From: a virus
Taxonomy: Duplodnaviria > Heunggongvirae > Uroviricota > Caudoviricetes
IMG/VR virus record: IMGVR_UViG_3300004481_001615
Length of the DNA: 30,771 bases
Strand: one strand, 5' to 3'
In this document: positions 3,983-28,878 of the stretch, piece by piece
How positions within the stretch are numbered: position 1 is the first letter of the stretch
Layout of the letters: the number at the start of each line of letters is the position of its first letter
Program-made: the position numbers and the translations under genes
Notes under the pieces: model-generated
What the model saw: only the letters and a program-made list of their open reading frames with translations
Told to the model about the DNA's origin: nothing
Database searches by the model: none

Positions 3983-4636
3983 ATGACAGGTAAAAATCAT
4001 AGGTCAATAGAGTTTAACGCGCCCCGAAGGTTCTTAGGTAATGAGGCTATCTTAAATTATTGGAGAATGGCTAAGACTCTAGACGAAGAATCTGGGGAGA
4101 ACCAGTGCGAGTTATACTTCGTGATATTGTGGGAAACGGGTGCTAGGATTGGGGAGGTCTTGAACCTAGAACCTAACCAAATTACGTGGAACAATGAGGC
4201 TATCCTAATTGATAGAATGATGGTGTTAAAAAGAAGGAAGCGTTTTGTACGTGATGTGCTCATAAAACGAGACGATAAAGACCCGCTCGCCGAGGTGTTT
4301 GTCAATTATGTTAAGGAGTGCAATACCTCATACCTGCTCCCAGCACATAAAAAGTTCACGAAAGACATCATACCGAACAAGCACGTCAGCATGTACCCAA
4401 TATACACGAGGATTGTGAGAGTAGCCGACCCAACATTGAGCAAGAAGAGCATTTGGCCTCACCTGATTAGAGACCAGCGGGCTTTCTTCTTAAAAGAGAT
4501 TAGGGGATTGGATGTGTATGAACTACAGAAATGGTTCGCTTGGGCGAGGATGGAACAGGTTATGCACTATGTAGGTAATCCAGACACAGCAATGCTAGCG
4601 AGTAAGATGGGTATCAAAGAGGTACCCAAACAGTGA
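3983..4636 (+). CDS. Tyrosine recombinase/integrase, catalytic domain only (track start 3968)
   Basis: ETGARIGE (R), VLKRR (K), PHLIR (HxxR), FAWAR (W in place of the second His), MHYV (Y); no room for an N-terminal core-binding domain. Confidence 0.85.
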   Translation: MTGKNHRSIEFNAPRRFLGNEAILNYWRMAKTLDEESGENQCELYFVILWETGARIGEVLNLEPNQITWNNEAILIDRMMVLKRRKRFVRDVLIKRDDKDPLAEVFVNYVKECNTSYLLPAHKKFTKDIIPNKHVSMYPIYTRIVRVADPTLSKKSIWPHLIRDQRAFFLKEIRGLDVYELQKWFAWARMEQVMHYVGNPDTAMLASKMGIKEVPKQ

Positions 4637-4757
4637 CTACCTCAACAACAAAACCAACACCAAATAACCACTGTATGATAAGCATTAAGAAAACAGCTAT
4701 GATAGTGAAGAGGAGTAGCCCCTTGTCTGATTCCTCCACTTCTCTAACTTCACTCAT
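4614..4757 (-). CDS. Small membrane protein, 47 aa (not in track): MSEVREVEESDKGLLLFTIIAVFLMLIIQWLFGVGFVVEVVTVWVPL
   Basis: Translated by hand; TAATG overlap with the upstream ORF; long hydrophobic stretch; overlaps the recombinase 3' end convergently. Confidence 0.6.
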   Translation of the reverse strand: MSEVREVEESDKGLLLFTIIAVFLMLIIQWLFGVGFVVEVVTVWVPL

Positions 4758-4915
4758 TATTCTTTCTCCTGTCTCAGTTTAGGTTGTAATGAACGTTTCA
4801 AACCAATTCGCCTAAGCCCTTCTCTAAATTCTTCTAACTCTTTTAATCGCTTTTCTAGGTCCGCAATCTTAACTTCTAGTGCTTTAATCTTTAAATCTCT
4901 CGAAGAATTACTCAT
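4757..4915 (-). CDS. Small coiled-coil protein (52 aa, MSNSSRDLKIK...; track start 4963 is probably too long)
   Basis: Heptad pattern LKIKALEVKIADLEKRLKELEE; ATGA overlap with the 4912-5052 ORF. Confidence 0.7.
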   Translation of the reverse strand: MSNSSRDLKIKALEVKIADLEKRLKELEEFREGLRRIGLKRSLQPKLRQEKE

Positions 4916-5052
4916 TTTTCGTTCTGCATCTCCTTTAGGACATCTAGTGGTAAACCAATACATCTAGCGACCCACTCATCGGTCATCAAGTGAGCACCTC
5001 TGGGCAGGTTTTTTACTTTGTACTTTTTTCCTTTCCATTCTATTATTGGCAT
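4912..5052 (-). CDS. Small hypothetical protein, 46 aa (not in track): MPIIEWKGKKYKVKNLPRGAHLMTDEWVARCIGLPLDVLKEMQNEK
   Basis: Translated by hand; AAGGAG SD; fills the gap exactly with an ATGA overlap. Confidence 0.7.
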   Translation of the reverse strand: MPIIEWKGKKYKVKNLPRGAHLMTDEWVARCIGLPLDVLKEMQNEK

Positions 5053-8865: not shown

Positions 8866-8881
8866 TTTATAAATGTTATGA
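8866..8881 (-). promoter_or_regulatory. Conserved promoter module copy (TCATAACA-TTTATAAA) heading the small-gene operon
   Basis: Exact tttataaatgttatga; contains the TAA stop of 8876-10864; 14-bp palindrome acatttataaatgt at 8863-8876. Confidence 0.85.
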
Positions 8882-10864
8882 TAAATGACGTCTATGCCCC
8901 ATCACCTCTAGTATGGTGTCTATCTCGGAGAGAACGAGGAGAACAACCACAACAACAACAAATGAGGTAGCATAGTTTGTTAGTACTGTTGTGTTACTCA
9001 GCCATAGAGAGTCAAAGAACTCTGGGAGAATCCACCTATTCAAACCGAACCTACTCAGTGCCTCAATAAACCGATTCATACCTACACCATTGACCGACGT
9101 CATAGTGTAACCGAGTAATCGATTAGTTGAAATGAGCATATTGGAGATTAACCCGAGTAGAAACAGTGCAGTATAGGAGAGTATATAAGGTCTAGTCTTA
9201 AAAAACCTCACGGCACCCAGAATGAAGGGCACTGAGATTAGGGGAAGTATAGGTAAAAGATATCTCCCAGGAGGTGCTAACCACCCATTCCAGTATGTTG
9301 AGGCCGAAATTGCACCGACCCAGAAGATAATAAACGCTATGGTGAGATAAGTGCCGGTCTCTCTCAAAGAGATTAATCTAGTGACCCCTAGTAGAGCAAG
9401 AATTAAGATTGGACCGTAAAATAAGATGCCACAATTATAATCTAAGAACAGACCAACAGCACTCAAGATAAACTCTTTATTTACGTTATAGCCAAATAAG
9501 GGTATTGTTTTAACACCTACATCACCAATATAGGCACCAAGCATCACAATACTATTAAAACCAACATAGAGATAAGTGTGGATGTAAAATAGTGTGAAGG
9601 GAAATATAAGGGCAATAACCGAGTATAACTGTTTCTTGTTCTTTATCGAGGTTATGAGTAGGATGATTATCGAGAGTACGGTGAGATACATTGCTTGATA
9701 TTTGAAGAAGGGTAGCACCCCAAAGGAGAATCCAGCTATCAGATAATCCGACCTAGATTCAGCAGTGTAAATCTTGTACATACCGAGGATGATGAAGAAG
9801 GCTAAGACAGGTTCAGAAAAGACTTGACCTGACCAGACAAACAAAAGGGTTGAAAGTGCGAAAGCACCAGCGGTGAGCAGTGAAGCAAGCATATTACCCT
9901 TACTTAGATATAGGGATAACTTGTAGATTATTGACACTGTACCTGCCATCAACAGGCACATAAAGATTAAGACCCCAGCAGTACTCGAGTAGAGGAGGTG
10001 CTCACCTAGGAAGTAAGGGATAGCTAAAAGCACTGGTAAGCCTATGGGGTGCTTGAAAATCTCTGTCCCGTTGTTGAGCAGACCACCACTGATTTTTGTG
10101 TGCCGGTACTGGTTGGGTTCGTATATTGAGTCTGGACTCATATCACCTCGGAGGAATGCTGAGGTCGCCACGATGTAGTGGGGTTCATCACCAGTCAGGT
10201 AGAACCCACGGTACGGGTCAGCTTTCAGCCAAGGAGCATAGTTCATAAATAGAGCAGAAGTGTAGATAACAGCTATAACGAAAAAGAGGATATGTGAGAG
10301 TTGCTTTTGATTAGACGTCAATTTTTGTAATACAAACTCTCTATAGTACCACATCAATGGCAAGAGTGCTAGGAACGTGATACAGATTATGGTGATACTA
10401 TCTATGGAGATAAACTGTGGTAGATAAACACTCTTCCCCGCGTTTATCCTGGTTTTTAGTGGTCGGGTAATACCTGACGATATTTTGGTTCCGTTGGGTG
10501 TAGTGTAGTCGAAGACACAAGCAAAATCCCCTGACTCTCCGACCTGAGCATTATCTGGAACAGCAATCTCTATCTGTTGATTGTATGTCTCACTTGGATT
10601 GATGGTGATATTACATCTCAATATACTAAAGATATTTGGACCCATCCAGCTGTGATGTATCAGGATGTTATTGATGTGGATGTTCTCCACCATGTTGTTT
10701 GTTATTTTTATCGTCGCGTATGAGGAGTATCCCTGATAAAGACCTTCATCCCATACCCACTCAACTGCTAGGTTCGGCTCAGAGAGAACGGGCATAATGG
10801 AAAAAAGAATCAGAGTGAAGAGAAGCATGAAGGGTAGTTTGGTGGTCTTCACTTTATCCACCAA
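8876..10864 (-). CDS. GT-C fold (GT39/ArnT-like) membrane glycosyltransferase fused to an N-terminal Ig-like domain (alternative GTG start 10852)
   Basis: Signal/TM, beta-rich domain (ATIKITNN...INPSETYNQQIEIAVP), then about 12 TM segments with the GDEPHY acidic loop, KHPIGLP, FSEP and FFKYQ. Confidence 0.75.
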   Translation of the reverse strand: MVDKVKTTKLPFMLLFTLILFSIMPVLSEPNLAVEWVWDEGLYQGYSSYATIKITNNMVENIHINNILIHHSWMGPNIFSILRCNITINPSETYNQQIEIAVPDNAQVGESGDFACVFDYTTPNGTKISSGITRPLKTRINAGKSVYLPQFISIDSITIICITFLALLPLMWYYREFVLQKLTSNQKQLSHILFFVIAVIYTSALFMNYAPWLKADPYRGFYLTGDEPHYIVATSAFLRGDMSPDSIYEPNQYRHTKISGGLLNNGTEIFKHPIGLPVLLAIPYFLGEHLLYSSTAGVLIFMCLLMAGTVSIIYKLSLYLSKGNMLASLLTAGAFALSTLLFVWSGQVFSEPVLAFFIILGMYKIYTAESRSDYLIAGFSFGVLPFFKYQAMYLTVLSIIILLITSIKNKKQLYSVIALIFPFTLFYIHTYLYVGFNSIVMLGAYIGDVGVKTIPLFGYNVNKEFILSAVGLFLDYNCGILFYGPILILALLGVTRLISLRETGTYLTIAFIIFWVGAISASTYWNGWLAPPGRYLLPILPLISVPFILGAVRFFKTRPYILSYTALFLLGLISNMLISTNRLLGYTMTSVNGVGMNRFIEALSRFGLNRWILPEFFDSLWLSNTTVLTNYATSFVVVVVVLLVLSEIDTILEVMGHRRHLS

Positions 10865-10950: not shown

Positions 10951-10973
10951 TGATAGATTAAAAAGAAGAATGA

Positions 10974-10989
10974 TTTATAAATGTTATGA
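10974..10989 (-). promoter_or_regulatory. Conserved promoter module copy
   Basis: Exact tttataaatgttatga, directly abutting the TAA of 10990-11400. Confidence 0.85.
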
Positions 10990-11401: not shown

Positions 11402-11815
11402 TTAACGTCCCTTCCTTAACATAGCGGCACATGCCCCACCCAAGAAGACAAAGAATACAACAACATAAACCATAGCATCTTGTAGAGTTGATGGGAAGAA
11501 TGTAGCATCTGAGAGGATACCAGCACCGTGGAGACTGTAAACAGTGTAGGCAACAACGATTCCTATTCCCATCACCGCCCCACCGATAAATAGGGGACTA
11601 CGTGCCTCTCGAGCAATCCACGCACATACAATAAAGCCAAACATTGATGGTGACAGAGATATAAGTGTGTTGGTCATATCAGATGTGAAGCCGAAGGTTG
11701 TGCCGGCATACATCAAAAACATTATACCAGCAAACATCACAACTAGTAAAATAACTAGAGATTGAACGCCAACTATATTGCCCATAAACGAGCCCCGATA
11801 TCTTCTTTTAACCAT
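11402..11815 (-). CDS. Four-TM hydrophobic protein; possible virion/envelope structural protein
   Basis: Basic N-terminus (MVKRRYRG) followed by two hydrophobic hairpins; ATG directly after the giant ORF stop. Confidence 0.75.
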   Translation of the reverse strand: MVKRRYRGSFMGNIVGVQSLVILLVVMFAGIMFLMYAGTTFGFTSDMTNTLISLSPSMFGFIVCAWIAREARSPLFIGGAVMGIGIVVAYTVYSLHGAGILSDATFFPSTLQDAMVYVVVFFVFLGGACAAMLRKGR

Positions 11816-14800
11816 TTATCTTCTCCTCTTACTAAATATCATTCCTATTACGAAGATTACCACTGGGACACATATCAGCCACCATGGTAACCCACCGTTC
11901 GGGATTACACCAACCACACTTGTTGAGATTAAACTTGTTGATGTTGACACAATACTCGTTGCGATTGTGGTACTCGTCACGCCTGCTACCACCGTCGTGG
12001 ATGTGCTACATGTAGTGGTGCACGTATCGGTCGTTGTGCACGTGGTTGTGGTCGTTTTGTATGTGCTTGTATTCGTCGAACAAGTTGTTTGGCACGATGT
12101 GGTCGTCACGATACTCGTTTCGCAACTTGTGGTGCACGATTGAGTAGTGGTGCACGTTGTTACACAACTTGATGTACATGTCGTAGTCGAGGTCTTGAAA
12201 GTTGAGCAGGTAGTGGTACATGTAACTGATGTTTCGACAGAGGTGGTACACGTCGTTGTACTGGTTTCTGATGTCTCATAGCTTGTTGTACATGTAGTAG
12301 TACAACTCTCAGATGTTTCTGTCGATGTCTCGCATAATGTGGTTGAGACCATTGAGGTATCTGTTGAGCAGGTGGTCGTGCTTGTCTTTGAGGTCTCAAT
12401 AGATGATGTACATGTGGTTGTGCTCGAAATACTAATGTACGTAGCTGTTGTTGTTGTACATGTGTCCACTGTTTCAGTAGAAGTTTCGCATGTGGTTTGA
12501 CACTCTGTCGTGTGAGTTACTGTCTCTGTTTCACATGTTGTTTCTGTTTCTGTTTCTGTAATTGTCTTGCAGGTGGTCGTAGATGTATCAGATGTTTCTA
12601 TTGAGGTTGAGCACGTCGATGTGCACGTGACGGAGGTCTCTGTTGATGTTGTACAAGTAGTAGTACAGGTCTCATTTGTTTCTGTCTCTGTTGTGCATGT
12701 GGTCGTACATGACTCTGATATTACGGTTTCTGTCAAACAGGTTGTGGTGCATAAATCAGATACAATTGTTTCTGTTTCACAGGACGTAGTACAAGAATCA
12801 CTCACTTCTGTTTCTGTAGAGCACAATGAGGTACAGGTCGTTGTGGATACTCTCGACGTGGTACAGGTGCTTGTGCACGTTGCTTCTGTTTCTGTATCTG
12901 TTGTGCAAGTTGAGGTGCAGGTATTAATTGTCACTGATTCTGTGCCACAGGTTGTCGTGCTACTCTCGGAGGTTTTAGTAGATGTTGTACAGGTTGTTGT
13001 AGAAACTTCTTCCTCTTTTGTTGTTGTAGAACATGTTGTGGTACTACTTTTCGACGTGCTTGTGGAGGTCGTGCAGGTAGATGTACACGTGCTGATAATT
13101 TCAGTTGATGAGGTACATGTCGTTGTGCAGAATGAGGACGATACTATTGTTGTATCACATGTTGTGGTGCTTGTCTCTGAGGTTTCTCTGAGCGTCGTGC
13201 ACGTAGTGGTACTCGTTTCTGAGGTTTCTACAGTGGTTGAACAGGTTGTAGTACATGATGTTTCGGTTTCTGTCTCAGTCACTGTTGAGCATGTAGATGT
13301 GCATGTAGTAGAGGATTTTACTGATGTTGTGCAGGTTGTGGTGCACATCTCATCTGTTTCAACAGAGGTTTCACAAGTAGTTGAGAGTAGTGTTGTAGAC
13401 GTAATAGATGTATCTGTCTCACATGTTGTGGTCGTGGTTTGTGATGTCTCGATAGAGGTCGTGCAAGTTGAGGTACAGGTTTGTGATGTCTCTCTTGATG
13501 TTGTGCACGTGGTAGTGCTGGTCTTTATCGTTGTTTTCGAGGTGGTACAGGTTGTTTCACATTCTGTAGAGGACACAATAGATGTGTCGCAAGTGGTGGT
13601 GCTTGTCTCAGAGGTCTCTGTTGAGGTAGTACATGTTGATGTACAGGTATTGAGTGTTTCGGTTTCGGTAGCACATGTTGTGGTACAAGAGTTCGATGTA
13701 CTAACGGTCGTAGAACAAGTGGTGGTACATGTATTGATAGATTTTACAGTTGTAGAACATGTGGTGGTACATGTATCACTACTCACAATGGTCGTTGAGC
13801 ATAGGGTTGTGCACATAGCGTCTGTCTTTATCGATGTTGAGCAGGTAGTGGTACTTGTGGCGTCTGTCTCTCTCTGGGTTGTGCATGTGGTGGTGCTTGT
13901 CTGAGATGTTTTTCTAGATGTGGTGCACGTAGTAGTACTTGTTTGGGATGTTTCACTATCTGTCTCACATTCGGTAGTAGATGAAATTGATGTAGCACAG
14001 ATAGTTGTGGATTCTGTGGACGATTTAATTGTAGTATCACATGTTGTGGTCGAGGCTGTTGAAGATTTAATTGTTGTGTCGCAGGTGGTAGTTGAAACAG
14101 TTGAGGATTTGATAGTTGTGTCGCAGGTGGTAGTCGAGGCTGTAGAAGACTCTATGGTTGTGTCGCAGATTGTTGTGGATTCGGTTGATGACTCAATAGT
14201 GGTATCACAAGTCGTTGTGGAAGCGGTTGAGGATTTGACAGTAGTATCACATGTGGTCGTAGATGAGGTGGAGGATATCACGGTCGTTTCGCTCGTGGTA
14301 GTAGAAATTGTGATGGAACTCTCCGTAGTGCTACATGTTGTACTTGATGAAATCGAGGTAACAAACGAGGACGTGCACGTTGTGGTCGATGTCTTAGCCG
14401 TTGTGCACGTGGTTGTGCTCGTCGATGAGGTAACCGACTGAGTAATAGATGTCTGTGTCACTGTTGCTAACGGGTCAACGATAATTAAGATAACGGTCCA
14501 GATTGTGATTGAATTGGTTGCAGAACTCTCGGTTGAGAGAATTGTTGTCGTTATTGTTGAGTGAGAAACTCCTGGTTTAAAGTAACCCATGACAAAATGA
14601 ACGTCTGTTGAACCAAATTCTGCCCAAACCTCAACAATACCATTAGCAGGATTACTGTTCACCGATACAGAGTATCCGTTAAACTCAGCATTATTTGCTA
14701 GGTCTGCTCCTTCTGACTCGTGGACATCAATGTATCTGACAAGAGCACTACCATCTGGCCGTACACCCTGTGTTCCTTCTGCACTCAACCCACCAAATAA

Positions 14801-16537
14801 TATAGCGCATGCAAGTATTCTGCCGTCCTCATCCATTAGTGCCGAGGCATCATAATTATACCATGTTCCGTATGCTTCTTGAGGAAGACTACTCCACAAC
14901 TCGACAAAATCTACTTCACTACTAAAGTAGCCGAAATCAATAATACGTTTAGTTGTTGTATCACTTAAGTAGTACTCAACAACATCATCGGCACTAGACT
15001 TGACATAAAATGTGAATATAGATGCTGAACCCGCCGCTCCTTCTGGTTCATGTAGAACAAAACTTCTTGTGATACTTGAACCATCTGTTCTTATACCAAC
15101 AGTAGATTTTGTGTCCTGTTCTACATTCTCTATCGCAACAGCATGGACTTTACCTCCATCTGTTCCTAAATCAAAGTTTGTCCACTCACCAATTGTTGAA
15201 ATTGTTGTTTTGGTAGCCTCCTCTGTAAAAGAGCAGTTCTCCCAATAACCCATTATGTAGAATACATGCACACTATCAGCATAATACTCTATATATCCTG
15301 TTGATGCATCGACCTGAACTGGCATTGTTACACAGACATAACCACCGCCCTCTGCTTCGTGTTGGTCAACATACCTAGTTAGAGATGACCCATCAGCACG
15401 CACACCTCCCTCATTTATTGAGTTTGTAGACCCGCCAGCGACCACAATCTCAGCAACGGCACCCTTTGGAACTCCTTTATTAGTATAGATGTCATAGTTA
15501 GGCCATGCTGTCTCGCCAGAGTCTGTCCAACTATTAATCATTTCTGTGTAGGTCATGTCTGGGTCGATACTAGCTATATTGGTTGGGAATATTGTGGTTA
15601 TTCCTTTACCGTTCCAAAAGTCTTCCTTTCCAGCATACCACTCAACATTACCAAATTGAGTTGTATCTAGACATAACCACTGACCATTCTCATTCCAACT
15701 CTGGGATTTTGCTACATAAAATTTATTACGAGAACCCTTACTAACTTGTTTATCTAATGTTGTGATATCTTGTAATGATTCATGCACTGGATTACCAGTC
15801 TCATCATAACTCGCTATTACTGGTGCTACTTCTGTGTGGTATTTATGTATGTTTGATGGAGTGACGACCCACATCCACCGGAAGTCTCCGATAATCCAAT
15901 CTGCTGTTTTTACTATAGAGACAGATATTTTTGGTGGTGCTGAGATACCGTTAAGCTCAAAATCTATAGTAGCATAGGCAATAATGTTTTTCTTTGGATT
16001 CACGGGAGAATAGATACTATATGTTAAACGATAAAGACTCGCATTTGCCACGGACACCGATATTGTTTTACCAAAATCTAAGAGAGGTAACCAAGTCGTA
16101 CCTGATAGATATTGGAGAACATAAACAGATTTAGTAACAACAACTTCACCATAGTGATTAGTGAAACTCAGCAAGTTTCCTGGTTGCATCCAGGTATAAT
16201 TCCCAAAGGGCGTAACATAAATGTAGTTTGACCCATCAAAAACAAGGGTAATAGAAGACATAGCATGGTTATATGAATATCCACGCTCGTGAGTAAATGG
16301 AACATACCCAAACTCACCACTACCATCACTTGTTATACCACGGGGGAAGTACTGGATATCATTTATCGTTACACCCGATGGCTGATAAGAGTAAAGTGGG
16401 TAATCGTAATCAACTGGTGGTGTTGGTGTTGGCGGGAGAACAGAAAAGTCTTCCCCAGAATAAACCATGGGGATTAAAAAGAATAACAGGAGTAGCCACG
16501 CCAAGAATTTCCTCTTTAAAAGACTACTCGACAGCAA
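11816..16537 (-). CDS. Giant (1573 aa) membrane-anchored surface protein: signal peptide, N-terminal beta-rich domain, three repeated domains, about 800-aa Thr/Ser/Cys stalk, C-terminal TM plus KRRR
   Basis: KRKFLAWLLLLFFLIPMVYS signal; repeats visible in the translation; C-terminus IPNGGLPWWLICVPVVIFVIGMIFSKRRR; TTG start with GGTGGTG SD. Confidence 0.9.
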   Translation of the reverse strand: MLSSSLLKRKFLAWLLLLFFLIPMVYSGEDFSVLPPTPTPPVDYDYPLYSYQPSGVTINDIQYFPRGITSDGSGEFGYVPFTHERGYSYNHAMSSITLVFDGSNYIYVTPFGNYTWMQPGNLLSFTNHYGEVVVTKSVYVLQYLSGTTWLPLLDFGKTISVSVANASLYRLTYSIYSPVNPKKNIIAYATIDFELNGISAPPKISVSIVKTADWIIGDFRWMWVVTPSNIHKYHTEVAPVIASYDETGNPVHESLQDITTLDKQVSKGSRNKFYVAKSQSWNENGQWLCLDTTQFGNVEWYAGKEDFWNGKGITTIFPTNIASIDPDMTYTEMINSWTDSGETAWPNYDIYTNKGVPKGAVAEIVVAGGSTNSINEGGVRADGSSLTRYVDQHEAEGGGYVCVTMPVQVDASTGYIEYYADSVHVFYIMGYWENCSFTEEATKTTISTIGEWTNFDLGTDGGKVHAVAIENVEQDTKSTVGIRTDGSSITRSFVLHEPEGAAGSASIFTFYVKSSADDVVEYYLSDTTTKRIIDFGYFSSEVDFVELWSSLPQEAYGTWYNYDASALMDEDGRILACAILFGGLSAEGTQGVRPDGSALVRYIDVHESEGADLANNAEFNGYSVSVNSNPANGIVEVWAEFGSTDVHFVMGYFKPGVSHSTITTTILSTESSATNSITIWTVILIIVDPLATVTQTSITQSVTSSTSTTTCTTAKTSTTTCTSSFVTSISSSTTCSTTESSITISTTTSETTVISSTSSTTTCDTTVKSSTASTTTCDTTIESSTESTTICDTTIESSTASTTTCDTTIKSSTVSTTTCDTTIKSSTASTTTCDTTIKSSTESTTICATSISSTTECETDSETSQTSTTTCTTSRKTSQTSTTTCTTQRETDATSTTTCSTSIKTDAMCTTLCSTTIVSSDTCTTTCSTTVKSINTCTTTCSTTVSTSNSCTTTCATETETLNTCTSTCTTSTETSETSTTTCDTSIVSSTECETTCTTSKTTIKTSTTTCTTSRETSQTCTSTCTTSIETSQTTTTTCETDTSITSTTLLSTTCETSVETDEMCTTTCTTSVKSSTTCTSTCSTVTETETETSCTTTCSTTVETSETSTTTCTTLRETSETSTTTCDTTIVSSSFCTTTCTSSTEIISTCTSTCTTSTSTSKSSTTTCSTTTKEEEVSTTTCTTSTKTSESSTTTCGTESVTINTCTSTCTTDTETEATCTSTCTTSRVSTTTCTSLCSTETEVSDSCTTSCETETIVSDLCTTTCLTETVISESCTTTCTTETETNETCTTTCTTSTETSVTCTSTCSTSIETSDTSTTTCKTITETETETTCETETVTHTTECQTTCETSTETVDTCTTTTATYISISSTTTCTSSIETSKTSTTTCSTDTSMVSTTLCETSTETSESCTTTCTTSYETSETSTTTCTTSVETSVTCTTTCSTFKTSTTTCTSSCVTTCTTTQSCTTSCETSIVTTTSCQTTCSTNTSTYKTTTTTCTTTDTCTTTCSTSTTVVAGVTSTTIATSIVSTSTSLISTSVVGVIPNGGLPWWLICVPVVIFVIGMIFSKRRR
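11990..14440 (-). repeat. Degenerate 42-bp/14-aa coding tandem repeat, consensus near [S/C]TTTC[T/S/D]T[S/T]x[E/K][T/S]Sx[T/S]
   Basis: Units such as STTTCDTTIKSSTA and CTTTCSTTVKSINT; 42-bp period clear at 14022-14147; roughly 55-60 units (estimated from length, not counted). Confidence 0.9.
14576..15556 (-). repeat. Three tandem domains of about 105-115 aa inside the giant protein
   Basis: Shared W-x-N-[YF]-D ... G-[VI]-R-x-D-G-S-x-x-x-R-x(4)-H-E-x-E-G ... G-Y-[WF]. Confidence 0.85.
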
Positions 16538-16557: not shown

Positions 16558-16592
16558 TATTTAAATGTAATAACAGATATATAATTGTTATT
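16558..16592 (-). promoter_or_regulatory. Two tandem variant promoter modules upstream of the giant protein
   Basis: Sense ATTACA-TTTAAATA (16558-16571) and AATAACA-ATTATATA (16578-16592). Confidence 0.55.
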
Positions 16593-16627
16593 ACCCTATT
16601 ATAGGGATGCCATCGATTTGATGTCGT

Positions 16628-17956
16628 TTAAAAGGTTCTCACGAGTCCTATCGGGAAGAAATAGATGAACATTGCAATTGTTAGTAGTAACTGGACCATC
16701 ATAATTTGGTTCTGGTATTTCGGGAGAGTCTTTGACCAGAACCACGGGATACCGAGACAGAGGAAGGGTATGGCAAACATCATATAGTGGTTGAAGGGGA
16801 TGTATCTTCTGGGTAGTTCCCATGCGACCCATGAGATATATGTTCCTGCGAGGGTACCTAAAAAGAACTTTGACTCTGTCTCTTTTCGTTTTAGGAGAGC
16901 TAACCCGAGTATGGGTAAGGTCATCCACCATATTGGATAGGTAGATTGTGCACGGTAATTGATGATATAGTCTTTTTTATCACCGAACGATACAACAGTC
17001 GTAAGGTATGTTGGTGGATTACTCCAGTTCGGACCGAACGGACCAACCCAACTCCATGGCGGACGCCATGTTGTTTCTATCTGGGGAATACCAGTGCTGA
17101 TTCCAGTGAAGTAGGTGAACATATGCCAAACGTGGGAAAAGGGGTCATAGATATATTTCAGAGAGGTAGATGTTGTTGTTGCAGTAGATGTTGTAAATGG
17201 ACCGGTCTGGTTCTGATATACTGTTTCAATAACTTGCACACTGAGATTTGCTTGACTAGAAGGCCTCCATATCAGGTCTGAGATGAAGAGACCACCACCA
17301 CCAAATAAGACACACAGAGAGAGGAACACGGCTACTGGTTTTGCATCAATAATGAGGTTCTTTAGCTTGAAGTTCTCGAGGATGTGGTAGATAGCTACAC
17401 CCAGAAGGACCCAGAGTGCCTTTTCATTACAGAGGAAACCTAAACTTATTGCGAGTGAGGCTTTTGCTGGTTTCTTTTCAAGGTACCAGAGGACGAATAA
17501 AAGAGAGAAAACCATCGCAGGAATTTCGAGCATGTAGATGTTTCCGTGGATAAAGAGGATTATATCGAACATACTAAAAAGGGCAGAAAAGATTGCCTTA
17601 CGTTTGTCATTGAAAAGTCTTAGAGATAGTTTGTAAACGAGTAGAGGGAGCCAAACTGAGAACATCACAATCGGAAACCGCCAAGCAAACCAGTGGTCAC
17701 CAAACAGCTTTATGGCTACAACGCCGATGATTTTAACTAGGGGCGGATGCTCGGAGTTGGCTCCGAGGCCCTCGAGCATAGCACGTGTAGCTTTGATATA
17801 GTGAACTTCGTCAAATATCATACCACCGTCGTTTGGGAAGGGCATCACAAAAAACCTTATAATGGCACCAAATAGAACAAGGTGCCAGATGTCAATTCTA
17901 TCAATGAATCCAATAGCTGATTCAAGTATGTTTGGTATCTTAAATTTTACTTCCAT
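16628..17956 (-). CDS. pmt: Dolichyl-phosphate-mannose:protein mannosyltransferase-like (PMT, GT39) membrane glycosyltransferase (track start 17992)
   Basis: IFDEVHY acidic DE motif, EHPPL, WFAWRF, multiple TM segments and the C-terminal WRPPWSW typical of the PMT family. Confidence 0.8.
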   Translation of the reverse strand: MEVKFKIPNILESAIGFIDRIDIWHLVLFGAIIRFFVMPFPNDGGMIFDEVHYIKATRAMLEGLGANSEHPPLVKIIGVVAIKLFGDHWFAWRFPIVMFSVWLPLLVYKLSLRLFNDKRKAIFSALFSMFDIILFIHGNIYMLEIPAMVFSLLFVLWYLEKKPAKASLAISLGFLCNEKALWVLLGVAIYHILENFKLKNLIIDAKPVAVFLSLCVLFGGGGLFISDLIWRPSSQANLSVQVIETVYQNQTGPFTTSTATTTSTSLKYIYDPFSHVWHMFTYFTGISTGIPQIETTWRPPWSWVGPFGPNWSNPPTYLTTVVSFGDKKDYIINYRAQSTYPIWWMTLPILGLALLKRKETESKFFLGTLAGTYISWVAWELPRRYIPFNHYMMFAIPFLCLGIPWFWSKTLPKYQNQIMMVQLLLTIAMFIYFFPIGLVRTF

Positions 17957-18064
17957 TTTATCCCAGCTTACCGCTACCACTACCACTATCAAAGAAAACC
18001 GACTGTTTATATATGATAAGGAAGAGTACTACCACAAGTACTATGATTTGTATCAAAGTTCGAA

Positions 18065-18220: not shown

Positions 18221-18642
18221 TCTTTTTCACCTTCCTTACTTGCTTCTAATAACTTCTTTATCTCTAACGATTCTTTACTCAAGCCATTAGCTACACATAA
18301 TTTTTCCACTGCCTCGTAGAGTGGAATGTCTTTTGGCATAAGCCTAAAAGAGTATGGGTTTGCAGATGTCATAATCTCGTAGTTTGCACGGTAGTAACGG
18401 GACTTAACATAAACTAATCCTAGGACTATACATGAAATTGGGCCCAACAATATACCAAAAATTAAAAAGTGGATAAATGATGGAAATATTAGAAGTAGTG
18501 GGACGAAGTTCACAACGACCAAGTAATAGGCAATTGATGCGAAGTTGAATAGGGAGATTGGTAACGCCACGAGAGCGTAGCCCTGTTGGAACAAGAACAA
18601 CCAATTATGTTGCGTTTGTTTTAGCTTTTTGATATCTGACAT
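18208..18642 (-). CDS. Membrane protein (2-3 TM)
   Basis: Long hydrophobic N-terminal half; TAATG overlap with the methyltransferase. Confidence 0.75.
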   Translation of the reverse strand: MSDIKKLKQTQHNWLFLFQQGYALVALPISLFNFASIAYYLVVVNFVPLLLIFPSFIHFLIFGILLGPISCIVLGLVYVKSRYYRANYEIMTSANPYSFRLMPKDIPLYEAVEKLCVANGLSKESLEIKKLLEASKEGEKECLD

Positions 18643-19166
18643 TAACTCACCTTTTTGAACTTATAAACTGTGCAGAAAAACAGCTCTTTTTTATCTATGA
18701 ACTCAAACCCAGCGAGTTCACTGGCAGTGAATATATCACCACGACTGAACTCGTGTTTATGGTCTGGGTTGCCTCTGAGAGCATCACGGAATCTTAGTAC
18801 AAGGACTCGGAGAACAAACAACATCATATCATTCGGGTCGGATATAATGAGTGTTCCACCATCTGTAAGTACACGATGTGCTTGCTTGAGTGCTTTGTAG
18901 TACTCGTCAATATGTTCTAATGTATCGAGGAATAGAATGTTTACAAATGTTTTGTCTGGGAAAGTTAGCTCGGTAGCTGACATGATATAGTCAGGGGCAT
19001 TGATGTTACCTTCGAACTCAGGATTTGGGTCTATACCGATACTGTTCGGTATCCTATTTGTGTACCTCATATCGCCACAACCACAGTCGAGGGTAGGACC
19101 GTAATCGAGGTAGGATAGGACAGCATTGAGTTTTCTAATGTAAACAAACTTGTCAATCACACTCAA
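18642..19166 (-). CDS. Class I SAM-dependent methyltransferase (Methyltransf_11-like)
   Basis: LDCGCG motif I, FPDKTF, LEHI, RVLTDGGTLII. Confidence 0.9.
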   Translation of the reverse strand: MSVIDKFVYIRKLNAVLSYLDYGPTLDCGCGDMRYTNRIPNSIGIDPNPEFEGNINAPDYIMSATELTFPDKTFVNILFLDTLEHIDEYYKALKQAHRVLTDGGTLIISDPNDMMLFVLRVLVLRFRDALRGNPDHKHEFSRGDIFTASELAGFEFIDKKELFFCTVYKFKKVS

Positions 19167-20116
19167 GCTGAGACCTCCGTAAAAAAGTCCTCGAGGCGAT
19201 TGATTATCCTGACCTTGTCAAACTTGAGTGCTTCTTGACGGCACTTTTCTAGATATTTGAGATAGTCTTCTGACATACATGATTCTTTGATGATTAGGAG
19301 GTTATCAACATATTCTGATACATTCGAGGCGTAAATAAGGGGTAGATGGAGCGCTTTGTGGGTAATTAGATTAGAGGCTATCACAGGAGTCTTACATAAC
19401 AAACTCTCTACGATATTTAAACCGAAGGTATTCACACGTGCTGGTACTATGAGAGCATGGGGTTGTGATAACCACATTGGCATGAGTTTTTCAGGTATGT
19501 TATTTGTTTCGATGAATACTGCTTCGTTCTTCATCTCTCTCCGAACGGTCTCATAGATGTCGTATCCCTTTTGCCACACCTTACGAGAAGCATACCCAAC
19601 CGTAAACTCCTTGTATTTGGGTGGTAGGTAGTCATATTGTTTTGAGTCTACAAAGTTTGGAATAATCTTAACATTCGGATGGTTAATCTCATAGACATCC
19701 GTCACTGCGTGGACAGCATCAAATCGATTGAGTTCGCTACCACCAATTACTTTATTGACGAGATTAGCGAGGTTTGGTAATAGACCATAGTGATGGTCGA
19801 GCTTCTGCCAGTACGCATGAGAGTGAATGCCAGCAATTTTTGGGTGAGATGTATCAAAAAAGACCCAGCTAAGCGGGTTATAGGTGATGTAGTTGACGTC
19901 TCCCCTTAACTTGTGGTGATACCCCTCACTATATTTTATGTTTGGGTTTAAGTGGTCTCTGGGATTGACTTTCGGCTCGCCGTCTAGGAGAATTGGGAGA
20001 GCATGAATGTCTACCTCATGACCTCGACTAGCAAGTTCGTTTGCGACTTGGATAATCCACTTTTCACCACCACCAAAATATGAGAGACTCAGGTGATGAC
20101 CGAAAGATATCTTCAC
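19163..20116 (-). CDS. GT4 (GT-B) glycosyltransferase
   Basis: GGGEKWIIQVANELASRGHEV N-terminus; PARVNTFGLNIVES...PVIAS nucleotide-sugar motif. Confidence 0.9.
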   Translation of the reverse strand: MKISFGHHLSLSYFGGGEKWIIQVANELASRGHEVDIHALPILLDGEPKVNPRDHLNPNIKYSEGYHHKLRGDVNYITYNPLSWVFFDTSHPKIAGIHSHAYWQKLDHHYGLLPNLANLVNKVIGGSELNRFDAVHAVTDVYEINHPNVKIIPNFVDSKQYDYLPPKYKEFTVGYASRKVWQKGYDIYETVRREMKNEAVFIETNNIPEKLMPMWLSQPHALIVPARVNTFGLNIVESLLCKTPVIASNLITHKALHLPLIYASNVSEYVDNLLIIKESCMSEDYLKYLEKCRQEALKFDKVRIINRLEDFFTEVSA

Positions 20117-20970: not shown

Positions 20971-21002
20971 CTACGAATCTTAGAGAAATAAAGGTCTGAG
21001 TA

Positions 21003-21020: not shown

Positions 21021-21146
21021 CTATTTCTTCTTGCCCGCTTTCTTGGGTTTTATCACATTATAATAGTACCAGGAGAAATACTCTTTTGATTTGTAGCTGT
21101 GGGGATTTGAACGTTTCTTATATGGTCTGACTTCGTCTGACGACAT
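21021..21146 (-). CDS. Small basic protein, 41 aa (not in track): MSSDEVRPYKKRSNPHSYKSKEYFSWYYYNVIKPKKAGKKK
   Basis: Translated by hand; ATG 3 nt after the upstream stop; fills the gap to the next promoter. Confidence 0.65.
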   Translation of the reverse strand: MSSDEVRPYKKRSNPHSYKSKEYFSWYYYNVIKPKKAGKKK

Positions 21147-21149
21147 TAC

Positions 21150-21296
21150 TTAACCACCGTATTCTTTCGCGTAACTTTCTGCCTCACTCAGTGAGGGAAA
21201 TGTCCGTACTATCTTCCAAGAACCAAAGCCCCTCCCAGATACTCTAAAAACAACCCACTTCCGTGCTTTGATATTCTGTTTTATTACTAGACTCAT
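21150..21296 (-). CDS. Small basic protein, 48 aa (not in track): MSLVIKQNIKARKWVVFRVSGRGFGSWKIVRTFPSLSEAESYAKEYGG
   Basis: Translated by hand; ATGA overlap with 21293. Confidence 0.7.
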   Translation of the reverse strand: MSLVIKQNIKARKWVVFRVSGRGFGSWKIVRTFPSLSEAESYAKEYGG

Positions 21297-21448
21297 TTTG
21301 TTTTCCTCTTTTTCTTCCCACGGGCTTTGATTTCTTTCTTGTGTTCTTCGTAGTAACGTGCGGATGCTTCACGCCATAGTTTCCGGCGATGTTCGGTCCG
21401 TTTTGATGTTGACACTTTCCTGTGCCCGCTTTTCTTTTTCTGTGCCAT
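21293..21448 (-). CDS. Highly basic 51-aa protein, probable nucleic-acid binding or genome condensing (track start 21481)
   Basis: MAQKKKSGHRKVSTSKRTEHRRKLW...KKKRKTK; ATG 33 nt after the promoter TATA. Confidence 0.75.
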   Translation of the reverse strand: MAQKKKSGHRKVSTSKRTEHRRKLWREASARYYEEHKKEIKARGKKKRKTK

Positions 21449-21480
21449 TTGTTTAATCAATATCATAAATATTAAAACCA

Positions 21481-21499
21481 TATTTAAATGTTATGAGAA
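21481..21499 (-). promoter_or_regulatory. Conserved promoter module copy (TTCTCATAACA-TTTAAATA)
   Basis: Exact 19-mer tatttaaatgttatgagaa (one of five identical copies). Confidence 0.85.
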
Positions 21500-21596: not shown

Positions 21597-21800
21597 CTAA
21601 ACGTTTTCTGCGGCTTTCGAAGCCTGTGCGATGCCTACTAACAGAGCTACAATGACTAAAATCTGGGCCATTGTAGTTGCGGCACTTGTTACGTTTGCAC
21701 TAACAGAAGCCATGAATCCTAATGTTGCCAATAGGAGTACAACGGCGATTGCAATGACGTAACCTAAAATTGGCTTCACTGTGTCCAAGAGTCCACCCAT
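21597..21800 (-). CDS. Hydrophobic alpha-hairpin protein (67 aa), candidate major capsid/envelope protein
   Basis: Two hydrophobic helices joined by SVSANVTSAATT (N-V-T sequon); own promoter and GGAGG SD. Confidence 0.6.
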   Translation of the reverse strand: MGGLLDTVKPILGYVIAIAVVLLLATLGFMASVSANVTSAATTMAQILVIVALLVGIAQASKAAENV

Positions 21801-28790: not shown

Positions 28791-28814
28791 ATGGTATCTA
28801 AGACTGATATATTG

Positions 28815-28835
28815 TATAACATTTATAAATGTTTT
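28815..28835 (-). promoter_or_regulatory. Palindromic promoter module copy
   Basis: 16-bp perfect palindrome aacatttataaatgtt (28818-28833); 32 nt before the ATG at 28790. Confidence 0.75.
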
Positions 28836-28878
28836 TTGGGTATAGCACGTAGCCATGATAAAAATATGATATAGGTAC

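Follow-up and report, generated by a model that had tools for sequence, protein, structure and literature searches.

An array of some 800 threonine- and cysteine-rich residues, encoded in a 30,771-nt stretch of viral DNA (the window), raises the question of what so long and so narrowly composed a repeat does in the protein that carries it, and whether it forms a folded rod, a disordered thread or a binding surface. The array lies on the minus strand at 11993..14437, corresponding to residues 701-1515 of a 1573-residue protein, and comprises 815 residues in about 57 units of 14 amino acids; the limits read earlier (11990-14440) agree with this Thr/Ser/Cys block. It is defined by its composition, period, a shuffle control, a two-faced residue pattern and fold prediction. 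Threonine contributes 361 residues (44.3%), serine 157 (19.3%), cysteine 86 (10.6%) and glutamate 7.9%, so that Ser and Thr together reach 63% and hydrophobic residues only about 10%. The initial annotation had remarked on the scarcity of Pro, Gly and aromatic residues, and the counts bear this out: no proline, one glycine and six aromatics (three Phe, three Tyr) in the 815 residues.

The 14-residue Cys-periodic repeat described in that annotation is real: Cys pairs at lag 14 number 63, whereas 10,000 shufflings of the residues averaged 8.8 such pairs and never exceeded 21. Maxima of the Cys autocorrelation fall at lags 14, 28 and 42, with only three pairs at lag 12, and 39 of the 52 Cys-delimited units measure exactly 14 residues, four more measuring 28. 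Spacings between consecutive cysteines are mainly 4 (n=28), 10 (n=26) and 14 (n=22), a spacing of 6 occurring twice. In a profile of 47 in-phase units, Cys fills position 14 in 46 of them, position 10 is shared between Cys (24 units) and Ser (21 units), and Thr occupies each of positions 2, 11, 12 and 13 in 38-44; the first ten in-phase units carry a single Cys each. The cysteines thus stand at fixed positions, as had been claimed, but the CxxxC spacing given for the repeat holds in only about half of the units. Over the most regular part of the array, Tandem Repeats Finder (TRF) scores an 84-nt period, equivalent to two units, above the 42-nt period.

At the DNA level the units have diverged widely, with a mean nucleotide identity of 53% and an identity of 0.30 at four-fold degenerate third positions of identical residues, about the value that codon usage alone would give. 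These figures rule out recent slippage as the origin of the repeat. Since synonymous sites are saturated between units, the 14-residue period is held by protein-level selection, and both the period and the Cys positions are maintained in this way. Serine codons at position 10 are of the AGY type in 55% of cases, compared with 15% elsewhere, which points to interchange of Cys and Ser at this position through single base changes. The array shares the Ser+Thr richness of mucin-type PTS linkers but none of their other traits, being proline-free rather than Pro-rich, strictly periodic at 14 residues rather than aperiodic, and predicted as beta structure (pLDDT 61-75) rather than disordered. The earlier view that this is no ordinary Pro-rich mucin linker is sustained by the strict period, the cysteines, the selection on the protein and the lack of proline.

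The complete gene (11816..16537, minus strand, as are its segments and the enzyme and membrane-protein genes below) is a single open frame encoding a type-I surface protein whose domain order is signal peptide, head, stalk and anchor. A signal peptide-like segment, read from the translation, occupies residues 1-28 (16454..16537) with a basic KRK, a hydrophobic run and YSG. The minus-strand frame is the true gene because the N-terminal 660 residues have homologues at E-values of 1e-138 to 1e-155, and the plus-strand ORFs at 12567-13904 and 13920-14441 were dismissed as shadow frames of the repeat. A weak TATA/BRE-like promoter copy with three mismatches was found by motif scan at 16577..16593 (scored on the plus strand), 40-56 nt upstream of the start codon; the motif, repeated in the element, matches 24 times in the window where chance would give 0.34, and this copy is the sole match between 10990 and 21000. 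At two related loci (L004 and L009), gene callers passed over the equivalent genes in favour of small ORFs on the reverse strand, as might be expected if the repeat were a shadow frame, a pseudogene tail or a low-complexity assembly artefact not translated as read. The frame is nevertheless unbroken over 4.7 kb and continuous with a head and a transmembrane anchor that are both conserved, the 53% DNA identity between units makes assembly collapse unlikely, and the architecture recurs across independent samples, leaving this explanation with a negligible probability.

The head spans approximately residues 29-676 (14510..16453) and is an orphan globular region composed of three internal domains, each bearing the motif G-x-R ... 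R ... H-E-x-E, which is invariant in all three repeats of a nine-protein alignment. It gave no match in Pfam, NCBIfam, PDB sequences (profile search) or the ESM Atlas (best score 0.81), and tblastn did not find it in the phage collection; searches of Pfam, NCBIfam and PHROGs with the whole protein, head, stalk and small neighbouring proteins returned no usable family. Between head and array lies a hydrophobic junction, W-x-[VI]-I-x-[IV]-[IF]-[VI]-D-P (residues 677-689, 14471..14509), whose W, I, D and P are unchanged among three proteins with unrelated heads: the window protein, P0011 (from locus L003) and the L006 protein. This junction was considered as a cap for a solenoid and rejected, as AlphaFold2 gave a pLDDT of about 30 there and predicted no cap. 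The C-terminus (residues 1548-1573, 11819..11896), as read from the translation, consists of G-G-L-P-W-W, a transmembrane helix and a K-R-R-R tail, an arrangement of motif, helix and basic tail shared with P0003 and the L091 protein; the other complete Thr-rich partners listed likewise end in a transmembrane helix and basic tail. Despite this shape, no NCBIfam sorting model (PGF-CTERM and its kin) matched the window protein, and the L091 C-terminus scored E 0.0095 against Loki-CTERM (16.2 bits, under the cut-off of 19.9).

Comparison with related loci shows that stalk and head are exchangeable modules. The homologue search proposed in the initial annotation did recover Cys-bearing 14-mer stalks, namely in the P0011, L004/L091 and L006 proteins, where they follow heads unrelated to that of the window protein. 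Conversely, in P0002-P0009, which have homologous heads (29-48% identity over the aligned heads), an unrelated Ala/Ser/Arg-rich repeat replaces the stalk, and at least P0003 retains the anchor motif. No head homologue has a GT39 homologue within its fetched flanks, and no homologue of the head was found at loci L003-L169. An exhaustive phmmer search with 224 stalk residues against 1.84 billion representatives gave P0011 as the only true match, the six remaining matches being unrelated eukaryote-like Cys-periodic repeats; this count from protein databases is an under-count, giant ORFs often being left uncalled, as the locus-by-locus work showed, and some ten Cys-bearing proteins are known in all. 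The stalk matched no Pfam family at E-values up to 1 apart from a chance match to a domain of unknown function (DUF), and judged by these sequence searches the Cys-bearing 14-mer corresponds to no described repeat family.

Directly upstream of the stalk gene lies the gene of a multi-pass GT39/PMT-type GT-C glycosyltransferase (16628..17992), the proposed O-glycosyltransferase of the stalk. Its product exceeds the Pfam gathering scores of PMT_2 (PF13231; 31.6 bits against 26.1) and PMT (PF02366; 24.4 against 22.7), and a relative that clusters with it is named GT family 39 by NCBI, while it reaches 25 bits against an NCBIfam equivalog model with a cut-off of 800. The first transmembrane helix is followed by F-D-E-V-H-Y, in which D61 and E62 are invariant across 12 homologues with identities down to 30%. 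An Asp-Glu pair in the first extracytoplasmic loop is catalytically important in PMTs. No match was found among PDB sequences by phmmer, and the GT39 alignment found no relatives in IMG/VR.

The two genes travel together. Of about 40 distinct metagenome loci with a GT39 identity of at least 30% and enough sequence, about 20 have a giant Thr-rich, membrane-anchored ORF just downstream of the enzyme, and at about 15 related GT39 loci the Thr-rich neighbour is missing; among some 50 loci below 30% identity, not one shows this arrangement. In one enzyme clade with 100% support, all six distinct members with enough downstream sequence possess Cys-bearing stalks; stalks of this kind are confined to this clade, found on virus-like contigs, and to L003, whose partial enzyme was left out of the tree. 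This tree was a quick version with a midpoint root. Besides that enzyme it omitted any row with less than 28.5% identity or fewer than 380 residues, and the duplicates L004, L005, L008, L012, L107, L108, L113, L117, L122, L128 and L137. A GT39 homologue also stands directly upstream of P0011 (E 7e-56). Taken across loci, this gene order indicates that the Thr-rich stalk proteins are genetically paired with a dedicated GT39/PMT-type enzyme, often accompanied by a GT4-type enzyme. It is from the gene pairing only that we infer transfer of sugar to the stalk; PMT_2 is a broad family.

In the same gene string, a GT4-type glycosyltransferase (19163..20116), recognized by weak Pfam matches to Glyco_transf_4 and Glycos_transf_1 below the gathering score, has homologues in 30 GT39 loci, mostly at 45-52% identity. 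A SAM-dependent methyltransferase of this string (18642..19166; Pfam Methyltransf_11, E 2.5e-11) has homologues of 47-52% identity at L004/L005/L091, L007/L008 and L165, and a methyltransferase occupies the equivalent position at the cellular locus L009. Directly downstream of the stalk gene, a 137-residue multi-pass membrane protein (11402..11815) is matched at L091/L004 by a homologue (33% identity, E 7e-12) that immediately follows the giant gene. Farther along, a second GT-C-like membrane glycosyltransferase of 662 residues (8876..10864; NCBIfam LA_3751/LA_3752 family, E 7.9e-9, far under the cut-off) has its own promoter copy at 10973-10989 and might possibly extend the glycan; since the related loci yielded no counterpart, it is only weakly linked to the stalk. 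Two further ideas about the region were set aside: a lanthipeptide-like thioether reading of the Ser/Thr and Cys residues, for which no dehydratase or cyclase family appeared among the neighbours tested, and a role as spindle-virus capsid for a 67-residue two-helix protein at 21597-21800, which had no family support.

The closest cellular homologues of the GT39 enzyme all come from Bathyarchaeia MAGs, and L004 is a deposited peat viral operational taxonomic unit (vOTU). Going by such sequence relationships, the host of this archaeal virus-like element of about 95 kb is probably a member of the Bathyarchaeia; its habitat is likely anoxic peat or sediment, a setting in which extracellular disulfides may not last.

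To assess whether the stalk could fold, we considered two AlphaFold2 runs on two separate segments, both of which gave a flattened two-sheet parallel beta-solenoid. The best models reached pLDDT 75 and 61. The five models of the first run scored 75, 70, 61, 29 and 25 and those of the second 61, 55, 54, 49 and 40, so that several failed in each and confidence is no more than moderate. Both runs relied on shallow alignments partly composed of the repeat's own units, and AlphaFold2 over-predicts solenoids for repeats. Each 14-mer forms one strand of 11-12 residues in the models and two units (28 residues) make up a coil, which departs from the arrangement of two 7-residue strands per coil proposed in the initial annotation; the beta-solenoid rod that it proposed is itself returned by both segments, though at this moderate confidence. 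The predicted strand coincides in both segments with a two-faced stretch seen in 142 pooled units: positions 2, 4, 6, 10, 12 and 14, which hold the cysteines, carry only eight charged residues in total, with the main hydrophobic peaks at positions 4 and 6, while charges fall at positions 1, 3, 5, 7 and 8. This pattern suits a coil of two units, each supplying a single strand. Foldseek against the PDB returned no significant match (best E 4.8e-3, TM <0.25); the nearest solved folds included SufB/SufD, CsgA, RTX and Thr-array antifreeze proteins, the best rmsd being to the SufB/SufD beta-helices. A thin beta-sheet rod is thus modestly predicted for the stalk. Relatives with one Cys per unit, or with none, retain the 14-residue period, and paired cysteines are therefore not structure-defining.

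Several observations would suit a disordered, proline-free thread, densely O-glycosylated in the manner of a bottle brush, in which the cysteines only cross-link chains or envelope proteins and the period records enzyme spacing or repeat history. The stalk is paired with a GT39 enzyme, it is 63% Ser+Thr with only some 10% hydrophobic residues, AlphaFold2 models it with marginal confidence, and its junction segment comes out unstructured. Cellular partners of the GT39 family, moreover, are irregular, Cys-free, mucin-like threads of Thr, Gly and Pro that look disordered. PMT-type enzymes mostly modify unfolded chains, and sugars on inward-facing Thr would prevent folding. A thread does not readily account, however, for units of exactly 14 residues in 39 of 52 cases despite synonymous saturation, nor for the persistence of the period in four or more proteins whose heads are unrelated. 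The nearly chargeless Cys-bearing face is hard to reconcile with a coil, and the beta-favouring residues Thr, Cys, Ile and Val dominate where Pro is absent and Gly occurs once. We regard the disordered thread as possible but doubtful.

Among the three functions offered initially, the O-glycosylated spacer gained support from the GT39/PMT pairing, whereas the ice-, clathrate- or mineral-binding surface and the metal-thiolate fibre found none. For the first of these two, exposed Thr arrays would act as in beetle and Rhagium antifreeze proteins; the initial annotation had compared the repeat with the 12-residue coils of beetle antifreeze proteins. The likeness is one of analogy only: the Tenebrio protein TmAFP repeats TCTxSxxCxxAx with a period of 12 and Cys spacings of 6/6, a disulfide bridging each coil, while the present array has a period of 14, spacings of 4/10 and a single Cys in half of its units, and no sequence match to beetle antifreeze proteins was found. 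It is also ten times longer than TmAFP or Rhagium mordax RmAFP (PDB 6xnr) and, unlike them, forms a spacer in a membrane protein encoded beside a glycosyltransferase. Positions 1 and 5 of its outward rows bear Asp, Glu and Lys, the partner enzyme would cover the Thr faces with sugar, relatives have Cys-free, irregular Thr-rich versions at the equivalent place, the stalk stands between anchor and head, and Pfam reveals no sequence relation to antifreeze families. An ice- or mineral-binding role is consequently very unlikely. The second proposal, that stacked cysteines bind Fe, Zn, Ni or iron-sulfur chains, can draw on 86 Cys residues in columns about 4.8 Å apart if the solenoid model holds, on an anoxic habitat in which thiols would stay reduced, and on the SufB/SufD rmsd matches, which are a coincidence of fold only. 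Set against it are the want of His/Asp partners and known metal motifs, the free alternation of Cys and Ser at position 10, the relatives in which the period persists although units have a single Cys or lack it altogether, and the lack of metal-handling genes among the neighbours tested; a metal-thiolate fibre is very unlikely as well.

As judged from sequence and models together, the best reading of the array is an O-glycosylated, Cys-laddered spacer that is probably folded. In fuller form, we hold it somewhat probable that the array is the stalk of a type-I, C-terminally anchored surface glycoprotein of the archaeal virus-like element, a GT39-glycosylated and folded spacer stiffened by cysteines. 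The GT39 enzyme would transfer sugar from a lipid-phosphate carrier to Thr and Ser of the stalk during or after export. In the stalk, two 14-mers would make up each coil of a thin, two-sheet beta-solenoid, in which the even positions (Cys10, Thr12, Cys14, Thr2, Ile/Val4 and position 6) build the core and the odd positions (Thr11, Thr13, position 1, Ser3 and Glu/Lys5) present two exposed, glycosylated faces. Stacked Cys columns may stiffen the rod, by disulfides or otherwise. The stalk would keep head and membrane apart by a set distance, which standard geometry puts at about 14 nm for a folded rod and at well over 100 nm for an extended chain; the surface protein itself could be sited on the virion or on the infected cell.

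The proposed system resembles several described ones without coinciding with any. GT39/PMT enzymes O-mannosylate the Ser/Thr-rich linkers of secreted proteins in actinobacteria (PMC11727336) and, in the case of the Caldicellulosiruptor bescii GT39, in that bacterium (PMC6151902), and also in fungi. The likeness lies in a multi-pass GT-C enzyme with Asp-Glu after the first transmembrane helix and in exported, Ser/Thr-rich presumed acceptors; here, however, the enzyme is archaeal or viral and genetically fixed beside one giant substrate, and the acceptor, in place of a short Pro/Thr linker, is a strictly periodic, Cys-bearing, Pro-free 14-mer array some 800 residues long. Streptococcal membrane proteins have Ser/Thr-rich disordered extracytoplasmic regions glycosylated by the GtrB/PgtC2 and Pgf systems (PMC12041528), but these are short, aperiodic tails on many proteins, in contrast to one dedicated periodic stalk, probably folded. 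The haloarchaeal S-layer glycoprotein, with a Thr-rich O-glycosylated stretch next to its C-terminal anchor (PMC6098224), is alike in that a Thr-rich segment of an archaeal surface protein lies close to the membrane, ahead of a hydrophobic anchor; that segment is a short cluster, lacks Cys and periodicity, and is followed by a PGF-CTERM signal, a type of signal not detectable in the window protein. Among two-sheet beta-solenoids, CsgA (8enq), SufB/SufD (5awf, 1vh4), RTX beta-rolls and the autotransporter beta-helix TibA (4q1q) have sequence motifs that are absent here, and the core of the stalk would consist of Cys, Thr, Ile and Val, not of Gln/Asn/Ser ladders or Ca2+ sites. TibA is itself glycosylated, in the cytoplasm and by a different type of enzyme. 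The likeness to CsgA concerns the predicted fold only, the Curlin repeat motif (Pfam Curlin_rpt) being absent from the stalk.

Knowledge that archaeal surface proteins are O-glycosylated dates from 1976. A 2018 review nevertheless stated that components of the archaeal pathway had not been identified (PMC6098224), and a structural paper of 2024 called the transferase "currently elusive" (PMC11607397). A GT39-type enzyme encoded beside its presumptive substrate at about 20 loci, in Bathyarchaeia-like genomes and viruses, constitutes a two-gene system open to expression and assay, and hence a testable handle on how archaea attach sugar to threonine. Giant low-complexity ORFs of this kind are frequently missed by gene callers and are under-counted in protein databases. 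We advance only tentatively, as a proposal that may well prove wrong, that the stalk represents a new fold family, a glycan-coated, Cys-core beta-solenoid nanorod serving Bathyarchaeia viruses as a rigid spacer of set length for exchangeable receptor-binding heads, and that its GT39 partner would be the first identifiable archaeal protein O-glycosyltransferase with a genetically linked substrate. If the predicted fold holds, the stalk would be a thin, glycan-coated, thiol-laddered rod whose length is set by copy number, which would make it relevant to the attachment of viruses in uncultured archaea and useful to consider as a building block for protein design.

The longest open reading frame of the window (16537 to 11816, minus strand, 1573 aa) encodes a four-part protein, which begins with a signal-peptide-like segment, continues with a head of ~660 aa and a Thr/Ser/Cys stalk, and ends in a C-terminal anchor region made up of a G-G-L-P-W-W motif, a transmembrane helix and a K-R-R-R tail. 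The repeat that the initial annotation had placed at 11990-14440 is real and occupies residues 701-1515 of the translation (11993-14437, minus strand). The stalk consists of 44.3% Thr, 19.3% Ser, 10.6% Cys (86 residues) and 7.9% Glu; Pro is absent, Gly occurs once and aromatic residues six times, bearing out the scarcity claimed for these three classes. Its cysteines are spaced at 4, 10 and 14 residues and hardly otherwise; 39 of the 52 Cys-delimited units are exactly 14 aa long, and the proposed 14-aa Cys period is confirmed by 63 Cys pairs at lag 14, whereas 10,000 shuffles averaged 8.8 such pairs and never exceeded 21. The proposed CxxxC motif occurs in about half the units: position 14 is Cys in 46 of 47 in-phase units, and position 10 is Cys in 24 and Ser in 21; the first ten in-phase units carry a single Cys each, and Thr is typical of positions 2, 11, 12 and 13. 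Judged from its sequence, the array is old. DNA identity between units is 53%, and at identical four-fold residues the third positions agree in 30% of cases, equal to the codon-usage expectation. Of 20 Ser codons at position 10, 11 are AGY, versus 15% elsewhere, an excess indicating that Cys and Ser interchange there via single base changes. Together, the saturated third positions and the AGY excess indicate that protein-level selection, not recent slippage, holds the period and the cysteines. Identity with beetle antifreeze proteins or with mucin PTS linkers was rejected, as the repeat fails every sequence-defining feature of either, and readings of the stalk as an ice-, mineral- or metal-binding surface found no support beyond resemblance.

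When 142 in-phase units from four proteins are pooled, positions 2, 4, 6, 10, 12 and 14 carry eight charged residues in total and are filled by Thr, Ile/Val/Leu/Phe and Cys, with charged residues located at positions 1, 3, 5, 7 and 8. Such a pattern is characteristic of a two-faced β-strand that begins at position 10 and extends to position 6 of the following unit, positions 7-9 forming a variable turn. Modeling of 5-10 units had been proposed as a check, and AlphaFold2 folds eight two-Cys units (6-row alignment) as a solenoid with a mean pLDDT of 75.2 and a pTM of 0.59, two of five models failing; each unit forms one strand of ~11 residues, exactly on the 10-to-6 stretch. A second run on the junction and single-Cys units (9 rows) again gives one strand per unit, with a pLDDT of 61-77 in the repeat, ~30 in the junction and 60.8 as the overall mean. 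The proposed β-solenoid rod is thereby retained with moderate confidence, as a predicted flattened parallel solenoid of two sheets in which each coil takes up two units, in place of the two 7-residue strands per coil first suggested. In agreement with a two-unit coil, TRF scores an 84-nt period above 42 nt where the array is most regular. A Foldseek search of the stalk model against the PDB returned no significant match, and the Cys-Cys distances and buried face are putative assignments from residue parity only. AlphaFold2 tends to over-predict solenoids for repeats, and for this reason the models provide only moderate evidence for the fold; the main rival, a disordered glycosylated thread whose cysteines cross-link chains, appears rather unlikely but deserves weight. 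If the stalk is instead a thin solenoid, columns of Cys would lie in its core, and ~29 coils at 0.48 nm per coil (standard geometry) would give a folded length of ~14 nm.

Nine homologues of the head, with E-values down to 5e-155, were identified on metagenome contigs of 5-40 kb. The three internal domains of the head have in common an invariant G-x-R ... R ... H-E-x-E signature, and no match was found in Pfam, NCBIfam, the PDB or the Atlas. In the head homologues, the stalk is replaced entirely by a ~20-aa Ala/Ser/Arg-rich repeat without periodic Cys, and the G-G-L-P-[WY]-W anchor also terminates at least one of them (P0003). Conversely, three further proteins combine the Thr/Cys 14-mer with unrelated heads: P0011 in locus L003, whose units have a single Cys, a 1644-aa ORF present in L004, L005 and L091, and an ORF of >1232 aa in L006. 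Head and stalk are therefore exchangeable modules. A W..I....DP junction immediately before the array is invariant in three of the four 14-mer proteins. The second stalk type, an Ala/Ser/Thr/Leu/Arg-rich repeat of ~20 aa in P0002-P0009 (L001 10001-14902, L002 2833-6222), extends over hundreds of residues. P0011 (aa 1020-1200, L003 ~4460-5000) and the L004 ORF (aa ~995-1150), which have unrelated heads, also contain a common domain of ~150 aa after or between Thr/Cys arrays, with the motif G-G-Q ... K-D-G-x-Y-[YI]-I-V-D-E-[ST]-G-G and without a family match. The C-terminus of the giant of L091, the closest relative (14294-14503), scores just below the Loki-CTERM cut-off (16.2 bits versus 19.9, E 0.0095), which hints that the motif-helix-basic-tail ending may be a processed sorting signal.

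The gene immediately upstream of the giant (16628-17992, minus strand) encodes a multi-pass protein of 454 aa that scores above the Pfam gathering thresholds of both PMT_2 and PMT; after its first helix, this GT39-like enzyme contains F-D-E-V-H-Y, and D61 and E62 do not vary among 12 homologues. A methyltransferase and a GT4-like enzyme are found further upstream, and a second GT-C-like protein with its own promoter copy is found downstream of the giant gene. The window belongs to a 94,771-bp contig, a putative archaeal virus-like element, whose repeated promoter motif occurs at 21002 and 10973; the only copy in between, at 16577, is a weak one shortly upstream of the giant gene. Immediately upstream of the glycosylation gene string, several tiny, very basic proteins (21021-21481, minus strand) adjoin a protein of 67 aa (21597-21800, minus strand) that has an N-V-T loop and two hydrophobic helices; the latter resembles spindle-virus capsid proteins, a reading for which no family model gave support. 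A 1018-aa protein (25800-28856, minus strand) contains a right-handed β-helix domain (Pfam Beta_helix, E 2e-8) and could represent another fibre or a depolymerase, and L002, the contig of a head homologue, encodes an 891-aa β-helix/NosD-like protein (12739-15414).

A protein search yielded ~70 close homologues of the GT39-like enzyme, and each locus fetched for one of them has a giant exported Thr-rich ORF after the enzyme gene. A homologue also lies directly upstream of P0011 (E 7e-56); none was present in the fetched flanks of two head homologues. On a 1.25-Mb cellular contig, the partner consists of a Thr/Gly/Pro thread that lacks Cys and terminates in a transmembrane anchor, preceded by GT4 and methyltransferase genes ordered as they are in the window. 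A further 160 loci came from scans of species genomes and metagenomes, and the closest cellular enzymes (30-35% identity) all derive from Bathyarchaeia MAGs. Of ~40 distinct loci that combine a full-length enzyme of at least 30% identity with 2 kb or more of sequence downstream, ~20 have a Thr-rich ORF (>30% Thr over 120 aa) directly or one gene downstream on the same strand, and three more have one upstream; below 30% identity, none of ~50 loci has such a neighbor. Nearly all complete partners listed end in a transmembrane helix and basic tail, GT4 is conserved in 30 of the GT39 loci, and the L091 giant is followed by a homologue of the small membrane protein encoded downstream of the window gene. 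Several giant ORFs were missed by gene callers, which reported small ones on the reverse strand instead; public calls skip those at L004 9569-14500, L009 9275-14128 and L006 3807-7502. Protein databases consequently under-represent the family, and an exhaustive protein search recovered one relative only. No GT39-like relatives were found in IMG/VR contigs, and 443 stretches encoding relatives were found in the metagenome collection; the virus-like enzyme clade seems to be absent from the IMG/VR viral catalogue.

Four kinds of partner emerge from periodicity analysis: Cys-bearing 14-mers (window, L003, L091, L006); Cys-bearing 25-mers (L092 9448-13431) or 31-mers (L007 9649-13161, L094 9380-11437); Cys-free 14-mers with Pro or Gln at position 14 (L103 2757-7322, L109 9386-15988, L129 9470-14347); and irregular Thr/Gly/Pro threads. 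The Thr repeats of L092, L007 and L094, sister loci in the same enzyme clade, contain 9-11% Cys, and L007 has a non-repeat, apparently globular segment between two arrays. In L103, L109 and L129, Leu-Pro or Leu-Gln replaces the Thr-Cys of the window repeat within a strict 14-aa period, in proteins of up to 2201 aa downstream of GT39 homologues at 31-36% identity. In a quick maximum-likelihood enzyme tree (midpoint root; partial L003 enzyme, duplicate loci and rows with <28.5% identity or <380 residues omitted), the Cys-bearing cases placed form one clade with 100% SH-aLRT and a long stem. All six distinct clade members with enough downstream sequence have a Cys-bearing stalk, and one is a 197-kb vOTU deposited from Minnesota peat. 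The 14-aa period is therefore older and more widespread than the cysteines, which are a fixed feature of the virus-like clade; by these sequence comparisons, paired Cys cannot define the structure.

We propose that the GT39-like enzyme O-glycosylates Thr/Ser of the stalk, with sugar from a lipid-linked donor transferred at the outer membrane face, and that the Thr/Ser/acidic faces of the solenoid would bear these sugars. The stalk would serve as a set-length spacer presenting a fast-changing head, in a habitat that is likely anoxic. The closest known systems include Ser/Thr-rich linkers glycosylated by PMT/GT39 enzymes (PMC11727336, PMC6151902), streptococcal Ser/Thr-rich regions whose glycosylation depends on GT-C enzymes (PMC12041528) and haloarchaeal S-layer glycoproteins with a Thr-rich O-glycosylated segment by the anchor (PMC6098224). 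A stalk with a dedicated glycosyltransferase is of a known kind; the strictly periodic, Cys-laddered repeat is new. The archaeal O-glycosylation machinery has been stated to be unidentified (PMC6098224, PMC11607397), and the enzyme-substrate pair proposed here makes this question testable.
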